7,432 nucleotides of DNA from a virus (lineage: Duplodnaviria; Heunggongvirae; Uroviricota; Caudoviricetes). Position numbers and translations under genes: made by a program. Below the pieces are notes generated by a model, which ran no database searches, had not been told where the DNA came from, and saw only the letters and a program-made list of their open reading frames with translations. The stretch is taken from IMG/VR virus record IMGVR_UViG_2548876951_000007, one strand, 5' to 3'. Below, one piece after another: positions 381 through 6,298 of the stretch (its first letter is position 1; every line of letters starts with the position of its first letter).

Positions 381-406
381 AAAAAACAAAACCCGCGAAG
401 CGGGTT
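381..406 (-). terminator. Rho-independent terminator downstream of the restriction endonuclease gene
   Basis: Forward 390-406 AACCCGCGAAGCGGGTT forms a perfect 7-bp GC-rich stem with a 3-nt loop. On the minus strand it is followed directly by UUUUGUUUUUU (forward 381-389), about 75 nt after the REase stop at 479-481. Confidence 0.6.
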
Positions 407-478
407 AGTAAAAATGTACTGAAGTCAATGACGTGCCATCACAGTTAAAATATGACAGACTCTATTTACGTAGAGATG

Positions 479-1357
479 TCAGACTGCAAGATCCAAGGGA
501 AGATCAGAAATATCCTTTAATCTTTTACCATTAACCATCACGGAAAGCATGTCAGCTGCATCGCTGAGCCCCAGTATTTCAACTGCTGATATAAGTTCAT
601 AAAGCGCAAAATGATACACGCAATCTATATCACCAGTACCAAGAGCAATAGACGCCAGACGACTTGGAGTAGGCTCAGCAGTAACAACCATTACATGAGG
701 GAGATTTCCCTTACGGTTGCGAATAAGATTTAATGCCTCAGAACGAGCATTCTGGGCCCGGTCGCTTCTTATTGTCCATTTGCAGGAAATACTTGCGTGT
801 AATATTGGTTTCCCACCATTCGAACTCCTGAGAGCTGACATGCGGGTAACAGAATCATCCACCAGTAATTCAGGACTGTTGATAACTTGATCACATTCAG
901 GTTCTCTTTCAACAATAATATCTGGTGAAATCGTATAATCACTCCCCAGTGCAGCAGCTAGCTGAGGATTACTTTTTGCAGCACTATCCAATGCTATAAG
1001 ATGGGCATATTGTTCATATTTAGCTATCTCTAATCTGTTTCTACCAGAAACCTGATGTACATTCCATTTTCCAGGGCGTAAGTGGCTGAGTTTAAAAAAG
1101 GTTTTTTCTATAAACTCTGCGCAGATACTCTCAAACTGATTACCAGATGTTTGCCCTGCAACACGTTCACCAATCGTTTCAGCCTGCAAGAAGCGAGCAA
1201 TTTCTCTTGCTATAGCTTTACTGTTTTTGTTACTGCTATCTGCGTTACTAACAACTCCGGCAGTATTAATTGTGAGCGTATTCAGTAACAATTGGGCATG
1301 AAACTCCTTTCTGGCTTCAGCAAAACCAACTATGCTGTCAACCAAATCTCCATTCAT
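479..1357 (-). CDS. Type II restriction endonuclease, NgoMIV/Cfr10I/Bse634I-like family (CCGG-core recognition expected)
   Basis: 292-aa ORF from ATG 1355-1357 (M46 of the track ORF), with AGGA about 9 nt upstream and starting 13 nt after the MTase stop. Contains SPDIIV (PD) and HASISCKW (S-x-K) followed by RSDRAQNARSE, which I recall as the variant PD...SxK active site of the NgoMIV/Cfr10I fold. The track start at 1492 would overlap the MTase gene by 120 nt and is less likely. Confidence 0.7.
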   Translation of the reverse strand: MNGDLVDSIVGFAEARKEFHAQLLLNTLTINTAGVVSNADSSNKNSKAIAREIARFLQAETIGERVAGQTSGNQFESICAEFIEKTFFKLSHLRPGKWNVHQVSGRNRLEIAKYEQYAHLIALDSAAKSNPQLAAALGSDYTISPDIIVEREPECDQVINSPELLVDDSVTRMSALRSSNGGKPILHASISCKWTIRSDRAQNARSEALNLIRNRKGNLPHVMVVTAEPTPSRLASIALGTGDIDCVYHFALYELISAVEILGLSDAADMLSVMVNGKRLKDISDLPLDLAV

Positions 1358-1370
1358 TTCTGGATTTCCT

Positions 1371-2495
1371 TCAGGCTGCTTGACTATTCTTACTGATGTT
1401 ATTCTTATACCGTCCCTGCAAAACTCCATACACATATTGTGCGATTTTTGCTGCAAATAGCGGTGGAACAGCATTCCCGATCTGCTTTGCAATCTCAGTT
1501 TTTGAACCGGTAAAAATGAAATTATCAGGAAAAGACATTAATCTCGCTGCCTCACGATGAGTTATTGGCCGATCCTCTTCCGGATGTAAATATCGCCCTT
1601 TCTCCGGTTTGAAAAACTCAGTACGAATCGTTACTGAAGGTCTGTCCCACCACAGACGTCCAAACAAATCGGTCCCTCCAGATTTCTTTTTTAGCCAGCA
1701 CGCCGGGGTTATATCAGGTCTTTTTTTCTGTAAATCGAAACGGTTACCTCCTGGTGGAACCGCTTTATATCGCTCCAGAGAAACAGGTGTGGGATTACGC
1801 CCAAAATGTAAGTTCAGCGGAGGAAGTTCATTACGAATATCAGTTCCAACAGGAGCAGGTAAGTCACCAATTGCATCACGCGTACAGACCCATTCAGGCA
1901 AAGCGACATCCTTATCAGGGGAACGATGCGTTGGTGCTGGCGGGAACGCCGGAATACTATGCACATCGAAGAGTTCTCGTTTGATACCGATTGCTATCGT
2001 TCGTTTTCTTGTCTGAGGTACTCCATAGTCAGCAGTATTCAACACCATTGGATTAAGCAGAATAAAGCCCATGGATTTCGCTCTAAACGTAATGTCCGCA
2101 AACTCATCGCTTATCAGCAATCCGGGGACATTTTCCATGACGAACATACAAGCCCTTGAACGCTCAATGACATCCATATAAGGCTCCCACAATGCTCTTC
2201 GGTGATCACCATAACGATTCTTATTCAATAAACTGAATCCCTGACACGGGGGGCCACCTATGACCACATCAGCCTCAGGAACAGTATTGCTGGATGCCCA
2301 CTCCTCAATATTTGCCTGAACTCCATGCAAACCAAAATTGGCATTGTAGGTATTTATAGCTGCAGCATTATTATCAATAGCAAGGATACTTTCAAAGTAG
2401 TCAGACATCTCTCCATGAAGAAAACCATAAGATAATCCACCTGCCCCACAAAAGAGGTCTATCACTCTGAATTTATTTAATTCTTTCATCCGCAT
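1371..2495 (-). CDS. DNA (cytosine-5)-methyltransferase, Type II R-M modification subunit
   Basis: 374 aa with canonical C5-MTase motifs in order: motif I DLFCGAGGLSYGF, motif IV GGPPCQGFS, motif VI ENVPGL, motif VIII VPQTRKRTIAIG, motif X QIGNAVPP. GAGG about 8 nt upstream of ATG 2495. Confidence 0.9.
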   Translation of the reverse strand: MRMKELNKFRVIDLFCGAGGLSYGFLHGEMSDYFESILAIDNNAAAINTYNANFGLHGVQANIEEWASSNTVPEADVVIGGPPCQGFSLLNKNRYGDHRRALWEPYMDVIERSRACMFVMENVPGLLISDEFADITFRAKSMGFILLNPMVLNTADYGVPQTRKRTIAIGIKRELFDVHSIPAFPPAPTHRSPDKDVALPEWVCTRDAIGDLPAPVGTDIRNELPPLNLHFGRNPTPVSLERYKAVPPGGNRFDLQKKRPDITPACWLKKKSGGTDLFGRLWWDRPSVTIRTEFFKPEKGRYLHPEEDRPITHREAARLMSFPDNFIFTGSKTEIAKQIGNAVPPLFAAKIAQYVYGVLQGRYKNNISKNSQAA

Positions 2496-2578
2496 CCATA
2501 TGCCTCAGATTAATGTTGAGCGTCTTACAGGACGCGTAATGTTAACTGGGGCTTTCTCTATCTGCCTTTTGGTGTTCA

Positions 2579-2603
2579 TGCCTGAGGCAGACAGCCTCAG
2601 GCA
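2579..2603 (-). promoter_or_regulatory. 9-bp-stem perfect palindrome (TGCCTGAGG-N7-CCTCAGGCA) between the QueH-like and MTase genes; operator or leader hairpin
   Basis: Seen directly in the sequence. No U-tract follows on either strand, so it is not a canonical intrinsic terminator. It sits immediately downstream of the candidate promoter at 2613-2641. Confidence 0.35.
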
Positions 2604-2612
2604 CCCGCAGCA

Positions 2613-2641
2613 ATTCTACTTAACTCACGTCACCTCGCCAA
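2613..2641 (-). promoter_or_regulatory. candidate sigma70 promoter for the MTase/REase genes
   Basis: On the minus strand: TTGGCG (forward 2636-2641), a 17-nt spacer, then TAGAAT (forward 2613-2618). Consensus match only, no experimental support. Confidence 0.3.
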
Positions 2642-2673
2642 TATGAAATCAATCAGAAAGGTGATCCATAAAA

Positions 2674-3360
2674 TCACTCCTTCTCTTCTTTTCCGTAGTG
2701 GAGTTGGCCAATTTTGATAAGAGGGCGTCCCTGAGATTTGCGGTGTAGATTGGTATCGCGCAGAGAATACACACAGCCACAATATTCCTGCTGATAGAAT
2801 TTTTCGCGCTTGCTGATTTCAATCATACGGGACGAGCCGCCCTGCTTGCGCCAGTTATAATCCCAGTACACCATACCCGGATAATGCGCAACAGCTCGCC
2901 GCCCACACTCGTTAATCTGCTGCATATTTTTCCAGCGTGAAATGCCCAGTGAACTGCTGATCACACTGAAACCATTTTCAGCAGCGTACAACGCTGTCCG
3001 CTCAAAACGCATGTCAAAACACATGGTACAACGGATCCCCCTCTCAGGCTCCCATTCCATTCCTTTGGCACGTTCAAACCAGTTGTCGGTGTCGTAATCA
3101 GCATCGATAAACGGCACGCCGTGTTGTTCAGCAAAGCGAATATTTTCATCCTTACGAATTAAATACTCTTTCTGAGGATGAATGTTCGGGTTGTAGAAAA
3201 AGATGGTGTAGTCGATTCCCGAGGCCTGAAGCGCCTCCATCACTTCACCGGAACATGGAGCACAGCAAGAGTGCAGTAGTAGTTTGTTTGCCCCGTTTGG
3301 GAGCTCCAATTTAGGCCGTTTGAAATCAGCAATAGTCATAAATATTTTTATTGGGGTCAT
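2674..3360 (-). CDS. queH: QueH-like (DUF208) epoxyqueuosine reductase family protein, putative Fe-S enzyme
   Basis: 228-aa ORF with an N-terminal [11 protein letters not shown] motif, a central [10 protein letters not shown] and a C-terminal EYCGCVYS. This Cys pattern matches what I recall of the QueH/DUF208 family. The start is uncertain: neither ATG 3360 nor ATG 3339 has a clear SD. Confidence 0.55.
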
Positions 3361-3513
3361 GAAAATAGCACAGAGTGTAGCATCAGAGCAGGGCTATCGG
3401 GAATATATGTCTAAATCTGGTAATATCTGGTTTTGACGCAAAGCGGACAACCACGCTGGCTCTACCCTGCGCCATGAAAATGTCAATTCACATCTGAACT
3501 AATGCTCTTTAAT

Positions 3514-3939
3514 CTAGTAACGTCTAAAATACCTAACATTTCCTTGATAAAATGCCAGTACACGCTGCATAGCTTCGCTCTTCCGGCACTCGCGACAGAT
3601 TATGTTTAGGCGCCTGTCGTAGCGGCGTATTTCGCCGTCTGGTAATAGCCAGATAAGGTCCGGATCAACCACAGATGGTTTCTTCAGCTTTGCCCTTGAG
3701 AGTTTTTTGCGGGCGTTTTGCCAGTCCTTGCGCGCCTGCTCAGACGGGAATACTCCGTAACCGGAATTGTAAACATCACCACTGGCGGCCAGCTCCATGC
3801 ATAAACGACCGACAGACGCATGACTGACACCAATTTCATCCGATAACTGCCGAATCGTGCCTCGTCCGTTAAGGCGTACGAATTCCACGATCAGCCCTTT
3901 AATTTTTTCCCGCTCTTCTTGTGTAAAAACTTTTGCCAC
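3514..3939 (-). CDS. HTH-domain protein, function unknown (sits where a helicase loader is expected)
   Basis: 141-aa ORF starting at GTG 3937-3939, preceded by a strong SD (AGGAGGG, about 4 nt spacer), 38 nt downstream of the upstream replication-gene stop. Predicted HTH around TIRQLSDEIGVSHASVGRL; basic C-terminus. No DnaC/P-like Walker motifs. Confidence 0.5.
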   Translation of the reverse strand: MAKVFTQEEREKIKGLIVEFVRLNGRGTIRQLSDEIGVSHASVGRLCMELAASGDVYNSGYGVFPSEQARKDWQNARKKLSRAKLKKPSVVDPDLIWLLPDGEIRRYDRRLNIICRECRKSEAMQRVLAFYQGNVRYFRRY

Positions 3940-3979
3940 AAGCCCTCCTGAAAATTACCTCATGACCAGAAATTAACAC

Positions 3980-4942
3980 TTACCCCCTGAAGCCCGGCGG
4001 AATTTCAGTGTCCGGTTCAGAAATGTGATTCACGCAACGCTGCGCAGGTGAACGCCCCAGGCGGATAACCAGTTCATCCCATTTTTCCCGGAGTTTTGCC
4101 GGACTCATGATGTTTTTTACCCAGAACGAATCCCGCTGGAGACGCCCAAACATTTCACAAATTTGTCTGTGAGTTCTGCCATCCAGCATCCGCATTGTGC
4201 GAACGTCATTGGCCCATGCTGTCCAGTTGGGTTCTTTCGGTCTAGTGATCTCGCCATCATCGCTGGCCGCCTGCTCGTAAAGACTCACGATTCGTCCCCA
4301 GATCCACTGTGCGCACACCAAATCTTCCTGACTTCCCCACTGGCGTTTTTTCGCACTGAACACAACCGCGTCAGGGTGTCGGGTTAAAAAATCCTGTTCA
4401 GCCATCTGCGGGTCCGGTTGCGAAGCGTCCGGACAAGAAGATCTTTTATCTGACGGATCAGGTTTTAATACTGACGGATCGGGGTCAATCATCGCCCCCC
4501 TAATCGGCAGTTTTTTATCAACAGTTGATCCATCAAAATTTAACGGGTCAACCGTTGAGGGGTCAATATTTGACGGGTCAACTGTTAACGGGTCATTTTT
4601 TGCCGGGCTAATTTTTCTTTTCGGTTTATATGACTCACGCGCCGCCGCCGCAGCTGCTTCGAGTTTTTCCACATTAAGCCGATAGATATTGCTTACATTA
4701 CGCCCACCGACCTTACGCTCTTCCTTCGTCAGCCAGCCCTCTTTCGCCAGTTCTGCAATAGCCGATTTCACTGTGGATTCACTTCTTGCACCGATCTGAC
4801 GCCGGATAGTTTCAATGGCAGGCCATGACACGCCCTCGTCATTGCTGTAGTCTGCAAGACGGGCCATAACCGCCACCCTGGATAAGATCATGCCGGTGAA
4901 GGCGCACCCTTCCCAGACAAGACCATGAAGCTTGCTGCTCAT
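3980..4942 (-). CDS. phage replication initiation protein (O-like / YdaU-position), N-terminal winged-helix domain
   Basis: About 320 aa from ATG 4940-4942 (the track start at 4957 is GTG). The N-terminal segment WPAIETIRRQIGARSESTVKSAIAELAKEGWLTKEER resembles the HTH of phage/plasmid replication initiators. The central low-complexity VDP-repeat linker is encoded by the tandem 15-bp iterons. It lies immediately downstream of the YdaT-like gene, as in Rac. Confidence 0.6.
   Translation of the reverse strand: MSSKLHGLVWEGCAFTGMILSRVAVMARLADYSNDEGVSWPAIETIRRQIGARSESTVKSAIAELAKEGWLTKEERKVGGRNVSNIYRLNVEKLEAAAAAARESYKPKRKISPAKNDPLTVDPSNIDPSTVDPLNFDGSTVDKKLPIRGAMIDPDPSVLKPDPSDKRSSCPDASQPDPQMAEQDFLTRHPDAVVFSAKKRQWGSQEDLVCAQWIWGRIVSLYEQAASDDGEITRPKEPNWTAWANDVRTMRMLDGRTHRQICEMFGRLQRDSFWVKNIMSPAKLREKWDELVIRLGRSPAQRCVNHISEPDTEIPPGFRG
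4541..4615. repeat. five tandem 15-bp iterons (consensus about TRACGGGTCAAnnnT) inside the replication gene; putative origin
   Basis: GGGTCA/GGGCTA cores start at 4545, 4560, 4575, 4590 and 4605, an exact 15-bp period. A degenerate copy lies at 4481-4489. The adjacent 4505-4540 stretch is AT-rich and 4440-4530 holds four GATC sites. Confidence 0.6.
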
Positions 4943-4964
4943 AAAACCCCCGAACACCGTGCTT

Positions 4965-5390
4965 TTAGTGCATCACCACAGCATTCCCTGCCGGGCCGCC
5001 GCGATTCATCTGGTCATACAAAACAACCGCTGACGCAACAAAATCATCGACATCCTTCACCAGCCGATCCCTCCGTTCGACGATCTCACGGTAATATTCA
5101 GAACTGTGGCTGCGCATACGGGCCACCAGCAAAGGCGGCATCGCCTTTTCGATCGCCGGTAACAGAGCCTGCATTTTTTCAACAGCATCAGGGGTGTCTT
5201 TATCCAGCCAACGGAAAATTTTCTGGGTATTACGGGCCAGGGCTTCCGGATGGCTGTCGTCGTACAGTTCAGGGAACGTCATCCCCAGTTCGAAATAAGT
5301 CCGGGCTATTTCAGCTGCAGGAACTTTCTCACCATCAGGGTATGCCCAGGCATTCATCGCCATGCGGATGTGCTCATGTTTGATTTTCAT
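4965..5390 (-). CDS. ydaT: YdaT-like prophage protein
   Basis: 141-aa ORF with ATG at 5388-5390, overlapping the upstream Cro-like gene end by 17 nt (translational coupling). Size and position (third gene after the repressor, second in the cro-side operon) match Rac ydaT. Assigned by synteny and recalled similarity, not by search. Confidence 0.55.
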   Translation of the reverse strand: MKIKHEHIRMAMNAWAYPDGEKVPAAEIARTYFELGMTFPELYDDSHPEALARNTQKIFRWLDKDTPDAVEKMQALLPAIEKAMPPLLVARMRSHSSEYYREIVERRDRLVKDVDDFVASAVVLYDQMNRGGPAGNAVVMH

Positions 5391-5697
5391 GAATCATTTG
5401 CCTCTTGATGCTTCGGGTATGATCGTTTTCGTCATTTGGTTGCTTCATCGACATATTCTGCGAATAACATGACGAGCGTCGTAAGTATGTCCAATCAACA
5501 TCAGGACGAAGTTCTTCACACAGGACACCACCTTTTGTTGCTCGTTCAATCGCAGGACATCTCTCAGCAGGTAACTGACGTACACCTTTGATCCATTGAT
5601 TTACGCTTGGAGGAGATACACCTAAAAGCCTAGCCATTGCTGATTGCCCACCGACAACAGCACAAGCTCGTTTGAATGAATAGTTATCTTTTTTCAT
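5374..5697 (-). CDS. ydaS: Cro-like HTH DNA-binding protein (YdaS-like)
   Basis: 107 aa from ATG 5695-5697 with GGAG 10-13 nt upstream; the track start at 5718 is GTG and lies upstream of the predicted transcription start. HTH segment QSAMARLLGVSPPSVNQWIKGVRQLP. Transcribed divergently from the repressor gene. Confidence 0.65.
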   Translation of the reverse strand: MKKDNYSFKRACAVVGGQSAMARLLGVSPPSVNQWIKGVRQLPAERCPAIERATKGGVLCEELRPDVDWTYLRRSSCYSQNMSMKQPNDENDHTRSIKRQMIHENQT

Positions 5698-5724
5698 CGA
5701 ATGAACTCCAAAAAACACGCAACA

Positions 5725-5792
5725 ATATTAGGTTTAGCCTAATGAAATTGTCAATAGGCTATGCCTAATACATCGAGAGTAGGGATTGCCTA
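5725..5792 (-). promoter_or_regulatory. cro-side (PR-like) promoter with three operator-like dyads
   Basis: On the minus strand: -35 TTGACA (forward 5749-5754), an 18-nt spacer, -10 TAATAT (forward 5725-5730). Three TAGG-N5-CCTA dyads at 5729-5741, 5755-5767 and 5780-5792, with centres 26 and 25 bp apart. Confidence 0.5.
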
Positions 5793-5821
5793 ACGCGATG
5801 CGCATAGGAGACTATTAAGCA

Positions 5822-6298
5822 ATGCTTAGTGGTAAAGACTTAGGCCGAGCGATAGAGCAGGCCATTAACAAAAAAATTGCATCAGGAGCCGTCAAATCAA
5901 AGGCGGAAATCGCACGTCATTTCAAAGTCCAACCACCATCAATCCATGACTGGATTAAGAAAGGTTCGATAAGTAAAGACAAACTTCCAGAACTATGGCG
6001 TTTCTTTTCTGATGTGGTTGGTCCAGAGCATTGGGGGCTTAACGAATACCCCATACCAACCCCATCCACTTCAGATACAAAAAGTGAACTTTTAGACATA
6101 AACAGCCTTTATCAAGCCGCCTCTGATGAAAAAAGAGCAATTGTGGCTTTCATCTTATCTGGAAATGCTACGGAGCCTAGTTGGGTTGATCATGACGTTC
6201 GCGCCTACATTGCCGCAATGGAAATGAAGGTAGCTAACTATCTGAAAAATCAAGAATCAAAACGGAAAAGCCAGAACATCACCAAGACAGGAACTTAA
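5822..6298 (+). CDS. racR: prophage repressor, RacR-like HTH protein
   Basis: 158-aa ORF with an N-terminal HTH (SKAEIARHFKVQPPSIHDWIKKG), divergent from the Cro-like gene and flanked by operator clusters. Length and synteny match Rac racR. Confidence 0.65.
   Translation: MLSGKDLGRAIEQAINKKIASGAVKSKAEIARHFKVQPPSIHDWIKKGSISKDKLPELWRFFSDVVGPEHWGLNEYPIPTPSTSDTKSELLDINSLYQAASDEKRAIVAFILSGNATEPSWVDHDVRAYIAAMEMKVANYLKNQESKRKSQNITKTGT

Follow-up and report, generated by a model that had tools for sequence, protein, structure and literature searches.

The window analyzed here is a 7,432-nucleotide stretch of DNA from a virus of the Caudoviricetes (IMG/VR record IMGVR_UViG_2548876951_000007), and the gene under study is a 228-residue open reading frame (ORF) on its minus strand (2674..3360) that encodes a homolog of the epoxyqueuosine reductase QueH. 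Upstream of this gene stands a DUF977/Ren-like helix-turn-helix (HTH) gene (3514-3939; PF06163, E = 2.9e-28; phrog_142, 'Ren-like exclusion protein'), which is the last gene of the replication module. Downstream lie a C5-methyltransferase (MTase) gene (1371-2495; PF00145, E = 4.2e-54; PADLOC MTase_II) and an NgoMIV-family restriction endonuclease (REase) gene (479-1357; PF09015, E = 9.8e-127; PADLOC REase_II), and all of these genes are on the minus strand. An initial annotation of the window had described these flanks correctly. It had proposed that the ORF encodes a QueH-like Fe-S protein and had offered two roles for it, either as a phage-supplied tRNA-modification function or as a repurposed Fe-S enzyme in nucleic acid modification or defense.

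The Cys motifs on which that proposal was based are present exactly as described, as a 15-residue stretch of the ORF translation and as EYCGCVYS. The protein matches the Pfam QueH profile (PF02677, DUF208) with E = 4.8e-66 and 222.6 bits (cut-off 23.5), and the match spans positions 1-174 of the 175 in the profile. When the PDB was searched with the protein sequence, the sole match was Thermotoga maritima QueH (TmQueH; 7lc5, E = 5.5e-22). We also built an AlphaFold2 (AF2) model of the protein on 30 homologs (mean pLDDT 75.4, pTM 0.77) and compared it with the PDB using Foldseek. The five top-ranked structures are all TmQueH entries (7lc5, 7lc7, 9d86, 9dco and 9deu), with E values from 8e-11 to 2e-9, target-normalized TM-scores of 0.80-0.83 (0.82 for the entry with the best E value) and root-mean-square deviations of 2.7-3.4 Å. 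The next-ranked structures, TtuA and LarE, are sulfurtransferases that have the same adenine-nucleotide alpha-hydrolase-like superfold as QueH, and their E values of about 1e-4 are six orders of magnitude weaker.

TmQueH (7lc5, 7lc7, 9deu) and the window protein thus share a profile, a predicted fold and the Cys motifs CCxPx, CxxC and CGC. The ligand motifs CC..C, C..C and CGC of the window protein align with C9/C10/D13, RCERC and YCGC of TmQueH. Its seven motif cysteines are C32, C33, C36, C111, C114, C194 and C196 in the numbering of the 228-residue translation, and the same residues in the numbering of a 221-residue form (C25, C26, C29, C104, C107, C187 and C189) are invariant in 30 of 30 QueH homologs. 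It has reportedly been worked out which TmQueH residues hold the [4Fe-4S] cluster and which hold the adjacent single iron, and PDB depositions include TmQueH mutants at motif positions, namely C9S and D13N (9dco). The two proteins differ in that the window protein has a C-terminus longer by approximately 20 residues and has a Cys at the position of TmQueH Asp13. The sequence HSCCAPCS, which contains this Cys, is also found in the alignment in QueH proteins of S. aureus, Listeria and a gut bacterium, showing that Cys is the usual form at this position and that the T. maritima Asp is the exception. By its profile match, its Cys motifs, its fold and an orthology with unaltered evolutionary rate (see below), the window protein belongs with QueH in every in silico comparison of family membership. 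We conclude from its sequence that the window gene is a genuine, intact, full-length queH, as the initial annotation had claimed, and its product is predicted to convert epoxyqueuosine (oQ)-tRNA to queuosine (Q)-tRNA without cobalamin.

The open frame reaches an ATG at position 3360, and a second in-frame ATG at position 3339 (M8) defines a queH coding sequence (CDS) of 221 codons (2674..3339, minus strand). The RefSeq (PGAP) entry for the protein, WP_000150294.1, is likewise 221 residues in length and is named 'epoxyqueuosine reductase QueH'. The second ATG is probably the true start, since it agrees with the start in RefSeq and with that of the chromosomal homologs, and since a conserved promoter-like motif is present at 3374-3382. 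This motif lies so near to the first ATG that almost no leader would remain if translation began there. In the PHROG database, the protein matches phrog_3217 ('unknown function') with E = 4.4e-138 over residues 41-228 alone (window 2674-3240); the family omits the CCAPC motif, evidently because the underlying phage gene calls start at an internal Met.

Given the identity of the gene, we surveyed its distribution. A search of 5,426 complete E. coli genomes found DNA matching queH in 995 (approximately 18%), with ML35 and strains of O104:H4 and ST131 among the carriers; its identity to the window is at least 99% in 707 genomes and 90-95% in 107. At least 80% of the gene length is held in 985 of the 995, and 1,014 of the 1,017 copies are chromosomal. 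The gene is also found in prophages of Shigella and E. albertii. In all annotated E. coli examples that we examined, queH is in a lambdoid prophage and directly follows the DUF977 gene, and these prophages occupy three integration contexts: ompW (locus L001), trkG/Rac (L012 and L014) and a cspB/Qin-like context (L013). Escherichia phage HannyBb, an isolated phage with a 45-kb genome, carries queH in the same slot, where it is annotated as 'hypothetical protein'.

A QueH relative is encoded in 191 viral contigs of IMG/VR, and we counted neighbors in the best 80 of these. The upstream neighbor is DUF977 in 79 of the 80 loci, and the downstream neighbor is hokD in 54 and the MTase in 21. The downstream side is also variable among other prophages, where hokD, a Hok/Gef gene with a Doc toxin gene, or a DUF1971 gene follows queH. 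The DUF977-queH junction is present in 880 E. coli genomes, and the 3' end of DUF977 alone is present in 3,446, indicating that queH is optional cargo at this position. Three further records were rejected as instances of phage carriage. Staphylococcus phage SA 1306 Kay (L177, 282 kb) and Listeria phage LM 4-14-1 (L178) are unannotated UNVERIFIED_ORG records (OR844989.1 and OR848462.1, respectively) that look like bacterial chromosomal DNA. A gut 'Bacteriophage sp.' record with a QueH gene is likewise flagged UNVERIFIED and unannotated, and is probably bacterial DNA.

The nearest QueH proteins outside Escherichia are 80-91% identical to the window protein and come from Enterobacter, Kluyvera, Scandinavium, Erwinia, Serratia, Providencia, Proteus, Photorhabdus, Pectobacterium and Rahnella, among others. 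It had been stated in the initial annotation that enterobacteria normally use QueG, the cobalamin-dependent enzyme. This is true of E. coli, in which queG is present in 5,426 of 5,426 complete genomes, but it does not hold for the order, given these chromosomal QueH proteins. We surveyed chromosomal contexts in 80 species-representative loci, among which lambdoid markers occur only in those of E. albertii and Shigella flexneri. Chromosomal queH lies in housekeeping loci such as tmcA...queH...purC in Providencia, benE-queH in Photorhabdus and purL-queH-glrK-glrR-glnB in Erwinia. Among chromosomal genes, the one nearest to the prophage clade is queH of Enterobacter hormaechei (L018, 9181-9885), which is in a metabolic neighborhood (aldehyde dehydrogenase, GntR, budAB) and directly follows a truncated gene of the phage integrase family. 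Its upstream flanks vary between Enterobacter species, and the Enterobacter gene may also be on a small mobile islet.

In a neighbor-joining (NJ) tree, the prophage alleles all fall into a single clade nested in the Enterobacter/Kluyvera/Scandinavium group, which points to capture of queH by lambdoid phages from the chromosomal queH of Enterobacteriaceae. Root-to-tip distances of the prophage alleles are 0.162-0.177 within a whole-tree range of 0.141-0.222, so no rate acceleration is apparent. Pairwise Nei-Gojobori estimates of dN/dS among the prophage alleles are 0.04-0.07 over dS values of up to 0.45, and dN between a prophage copy and Erwinia QueH (0.095) is lower than that between Erwinia and Providencia QueH (0.158). 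These ratios and protein distances indicate that the constraint acting on the housekeeping enzyme has been kept during residence in phages, which disfavors both decay and neofunctionalization.

The selection data bear directly on the possibility that queH is a functionless passenger, neutral or decaying, that is carried along in a mosaic prophage region. Its optional carriage at the 3' end of DUF977, its catalytic redundancy with a universal QueG, and the fact that many carrier prophages are degraded Rac/Qin-type elements would all be in keeping with a passenger. However, the low dN/dS is that of a gene under purifying selection, the gene is complete or nearly so in almost all carriers with its ligand residues intact and its promoter-like motif conserved, and it is present in an isolated viable phage and in at least three integration contexts. 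We therefore regard a functionless passenger as very unlikely.

The adjacency of queH to the MTase and REase genes was the basis for the second role put forward in the initial annotation, in which QueH chemistry would be repurposed together with the restriction-modification (R-M) pair, or in 7-deazaguanine modification or defense. The two are physically adjacent and in the same orientation in the window, and the queH-MTase junction recurs, both in 57 E. coli genomes and in the 21 IMG/VR loci noted above. However, the R-M pair stands beside queH in just 57 of the 995 genomes and is lacking from the other 938. The pair itself is present in 60 of the 5,426 genomes, and many of the 57 with the junction are clonal O157:H7. 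Moreover, in strain 2014C-3051 (L015), whose prophage lacks queH at this slot, an identical R-M pair is found there.

The manner in which the R-M pair arrived can be read from a blastn alignment with the hokD-bearing locus L001. Window positions 2502-3948 and 1-407 are collinear with L001, and the intervening NgoMIV-type type II R-M cassette (408..2501, minus strand) stands in place of 287 bp that hold the hokD coding sequence in L001. The cassette has thus taken the exact place of the mok/hok coding region, one addiction module having been swapped for another, in this case for a type I toxin. Remnants of the earlier module are retained on both sides. The proximal remnant (2502..2641, minus strand) comprises the hok promoter, hok mRNA leader and sok region, the ancestral downstream neighbor of queH, truncated at 2502, and is 95% identical to the hokD locus of L001 as far as the breakpoint; it holds a promoter-like TTGGCG-17-TAGAAT (2641-2613) and the leader/sok region (2502-2606), and the Rfam sok model RF01794 matches at 2426-2606 with 61 bits against a gathering score of 59. 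The distal remnant is the hok terminator hairpin (381..407, minus strand; AACCCGC-TTCG-CGGGTT followed by a T-run), at which the L001 alignment resumes. An Rfam match to RyhB at 383-440 on the minus strand (24 bits against a gathering score of 55) is a false positive that corresponds to this hairpin. The MTase ATG (2495 or 2489) lies 7-13 nucleotides past the proximal breakpoint with GAGG ahead of it, so the hok promoter may drive expression of the methylase, on which Sok might even act as an antisense regulator.

Since the cassette precisely replaces mok/hok, the adjacency of queH to it is incidental, with queH belonging to the older backbone. The annotation and defense searches agree with this. 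PADLOC recognized the MTase and REase but returned no match for QueH in the same window. The 40-kb QueH prophage L001 has 61 annotated features, and these include no TGT/DpdA, QueC/D/E or FolE (preQ0 synthesis) gene, which removes the basis for a role in 7-deazaguanine DNA modification, and no TGT/DpdA, QueC-family or preQ0-synthesis match was found among the window proteins with Pfam, NCBIfam and PHROG. No significant avoidance of NgoMIV sites was seen (0 GCCGGC sites against 1.4 expected).

A chromosomal parallel might nevertheless be drawn in favor of repurposing. In several Erwiniaceae (Erwinia amylovora, L034, 8328-9719; also L032, L038, L048, L050 and L080), queH divergently adjoins a full-length Dcm-type C5-MTase gene (PF00145 and PF18284). 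The Erwiniaceae Dcm proteins are only approximately 25% identical to the window MTase, however, and the synteny is kept within one clade, so that we judge this adjacency to be curious but coincidental. Together with the variable downstream neighbors of queH, its 80-91% identity to housekeeping QueH and its unaccelerated rate, the distribution largely refutes a repurposed QueH, which we consider extremely improbable. The R-M pair is an independent addiction or defense cassette that has no part in QueH function, and of the two roles first proposed it is the phage-supplied tRNA-modification function that the evidence supports. The interpretation given in the initial annotation is, overall, partly supported.

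If queH is not tied to its downstream neighbors, its own expression signals become of interest. The gap upstream of queH is 150-175 bp, which is long for such a tightly packed operon. It contains a putative extended -10 element, TGcTACACT (3374..3382, minus strand), with a predicted transcription start at approximately 3367. We aligned the upstream regions of 12 queH genes, seven of them prophage alleles and five chromosomal genes of Enterobacter, Kluyvera and Scandinavium, and found ATGCTAC to be invariant in all 12; the remainder of the upstream flank could not be aligned. Elements resembling TACACT or TACAAT are also present upstream of queH in Erwinia and Pectobacterium, a reading that is qualitative and for which a minority of the 80 species loci were usable. 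The occurrence of a conserved extended -10-like motif in both prophage and chromosomal queH suggests that capture of the gene brought its native promoter along and that its transcription may be independent of the phage early operon. A consensus scan detected no terminator downstream of queH, and a permissive Rfam scan of the whole window detected no preQ1 riboswitch, returning only sok and the sub-threshold RyhB match.

What would a second epoxyqueuosine reductase do in E. coli? QueG (E. coli b4166) catalyzes, by annotation and literature, the same reaction that we predict for the window protein, oQ34 to Q34, but it is not homologous to QueH and depends on both a [4Fe-4S] cluster and B12. It is also a core chromosomal enzyme, whereas QueH is accessory and, unlike the chromosomal QueH of other genera, is borne by lambdoid prophages and phages and co-exists with QueG in every E. 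coli genome that has it. Since queG is universal, QueH would be a second, B12-independent enzyme for this step. E. coli is unable to make B12 de novo. An E. coli queG mutant reportedly regains Q when supplied with heterologous queH, and possession of both enzymes has reportedly been regarded as rare. In Acinetobacter baylyi, only the mutant that lacks both queG and queH is reported to accumulate oQ without B12. QueH is a recognized cobamide-independent alternative to QueG (PMC6461909), and, as the work is summarized in a later article, oQ takes the place of Q in the tRNA of E. coli and Salmonella when B12 is absent from the culture (Frey et al. 1988, via PMC6850298).

These observations are consistent with the following scheme. 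A Rac/Qin-type lambdoid lineage of Escherichia/Shigella would have taken queH, along with its promoter, from chromosomal Enterobacteriaceae, and phages would keep it as optional cargo immediately behind the DUF977/Ren-like gene that closes the replication module. Its product, a functional Fe-S, cobalamin-independent QueH, would convert oQ34 to Q34 in tRNA-Asp, -Asn, -His and -Tyr. The phage copy would thereby free the last step of Q synthesis from the B12 supply in the lysogen, during lytic growth, or both. Because every E. coli has a B12-dependent QueG and lacks de novo B12 synthesis, B12-independence is its most likely role. We regard this explanation as a whole, in which a captured and functional QueH provides B12-independent Q maturation and the R-M pair is independent of it, as likely to be correct. 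The most probable classification of prophage queH is as an auxiliary metabolic or lysogenic-conversion gene. Its carriage is optional and it is under purifying selection, and its putative promoter is represented by a conserved motif.

A related possibility is that QueH chemistry has been kept for a purpose specific to the phage, such as a rise in Q during lytic growth that would benefit decoding of NAU/NAC codons, or an altered susceptibility of tRNA-Tyr, -His, -Asn and -Asp to anticodon nucleases (colicin E5-type nucleases or defense tRNases). Colicin E5 targets the Q-family tRNAs and enters via the B12 receptor BtuB. Because queH is the last gene of the early-right operon, it would be expressed when the prophage is induced. 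In Shewanella, according to a 2026 preprint, queG is induced by phage infection and oQ is shifted to Q (10.64898/2026.03.05.709803), which makes it plausible that a phage-encoded oQ reductase is more than a passenger. On the other hand, since the promoter motif was inherited from the chromosomal gene, expression is suggested to be constitutive and independent of the phage, and no difference between oQ and Q in decoding or nuclease sensitivity is documented in the literature that we found. We consider a phage-specific purpose unlikely.

Several observations weigh against the explanation that we prefer, B12-independent Q maturation by a captured QueH. No NCBIfam model matches the window QueH, and the AF2 model that supports its fold is a prediction of only moderate confidence. 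We infer both the activity and the expression of the window allele. The putative promoter is a conserved motif only: a consensus sigma-70 scan found no site on the coding strand upstream of queH, there being no good -35 element, and neither candidate start codon is preceded by an evident Shine-Dalgarno sequence. As a member of the early-right operon, queH could have its main expression in induced cells and not in lysogens. Finally, to our knowledge, essentially no phenotypic difference between oQ-tRNA and Q-tRNA has been established in E. coli, which makes the selective benefit of phage QueH, including any benefit under B12 limitation, conjectural.

The window is part of a Rac/Qin-type lambdoid prophage. 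It includes a RacR/YdaS/YdaT module (4965-6298) made up of the RacR repressor gene (5822-6298; NCBIfam equivalog, E = 1.2e-73) and, divergently transcribed, a YdaS/Cro-like gene (5374-5718; PF15943) and ydaT (4965-5390; PF06254 profile match), followed by a gene for an O-like replication initiator (3980-4957). The module identifies the immunity region of the window as Rac-type, and other QueH prophages use LexA-like cI repressors, suggesting that queH has moved between lambdoid lineages with different immunity regions. In related prophages, a DnaC-like ATPase gene and a DUF1627 gene stand between the O-like initiator and DUF977. Comparison of window 3948-3976 with L001 21276-22822 reveals that both are gone from the window through a deletion of approximately 1.5 kb, and given this deletion the window prophage may be replication-defective. 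At the other end of the window, phrog_1212 (unknown function) matches only residues 52-117 of a minus-strand ORF at 36-389. Its counterpart in related prophages is a small hypothetical gene located ahead of the DUF968-RusA-Q genes, and the true gene is probably of approximately 66-90 codons.

Prophage QueH can be set beside two kinds of phage gene that are already known. Phage 7-deazaguanine clusters (DpdA/TGT-like proteins with FolE, QueD, QueE and QueC) resemble it in being phage-borne genes of the queuosine/7-deazaguanine pathways, but those clusters require a DNA transglycosylase and preQ0 synthesis genes, none of which was found with the window QueH, and QueH, unlike the DpdA-type DNA-modification clusters, acts on oQ after insertion into tRNA. 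Lambdoid morons between the replication and Q-antiterminator modules (hok/sok, Doc, R-M) occupy the same variable slot and are likewise optional, with a putative promoter of their own; they have toxin, exclusion or restriction functions, whereas the window gene encodes a housekeeping-type tRNA-modification enzyme. Neither a new mechanism nor a new defense system is revealed by prophage QueH. The initial annotation expected either role to be poorly described. That is true of the literature, since we found no description of phage-borne QueH in the articles searched, but not of the databases, as PGAP already names the gene. What has been little appreciated is its mobile phage context. Hutinet et al. 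(2019) found no homologs of QueA, QueG or QueH in the viruses that they analyzed (PMC6884629). Our findings indicate, contrary to that survey, that phages do carry a dedicated queuosine-pathway tRNA enzyme. The PHROG and HannyBb entries, in which the gene is listed as unknown or hypothetical from N-terminally truncated gene calls, could be corrected.

Queuosine status influences how Asn, Asp, His and Tyr codons are decoded, and links between it and virulence, biofilm formation and stress phenotypes have been described. A more far-reaching and rather doubtful extension of our explanation is that lysogenic conversion by QueH uncouples Q maturation from B12, and hence from BtuB, a receptor exploited by colicins and phages, such that about one-fifth of E. 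coli strains would differ from K-12 in oQ/Q under B12 limitation. Measurable consequences would be expected either for how well NAU/NAC-biased genes of phages or virulence are translated or for how sensitive the cells are to anticodon nucleases. The last step of Q synthesis in E. coli has been assumed to depend on QueG and on scavenged B12, and yet approximately 18% of the genomes carry a conserved, selected alternative that is predicted to be B12-independent. The picture drawn from K-12, in which oQ accumulates in the absence of B12, may therefore fail for many clinical and commensal strains.

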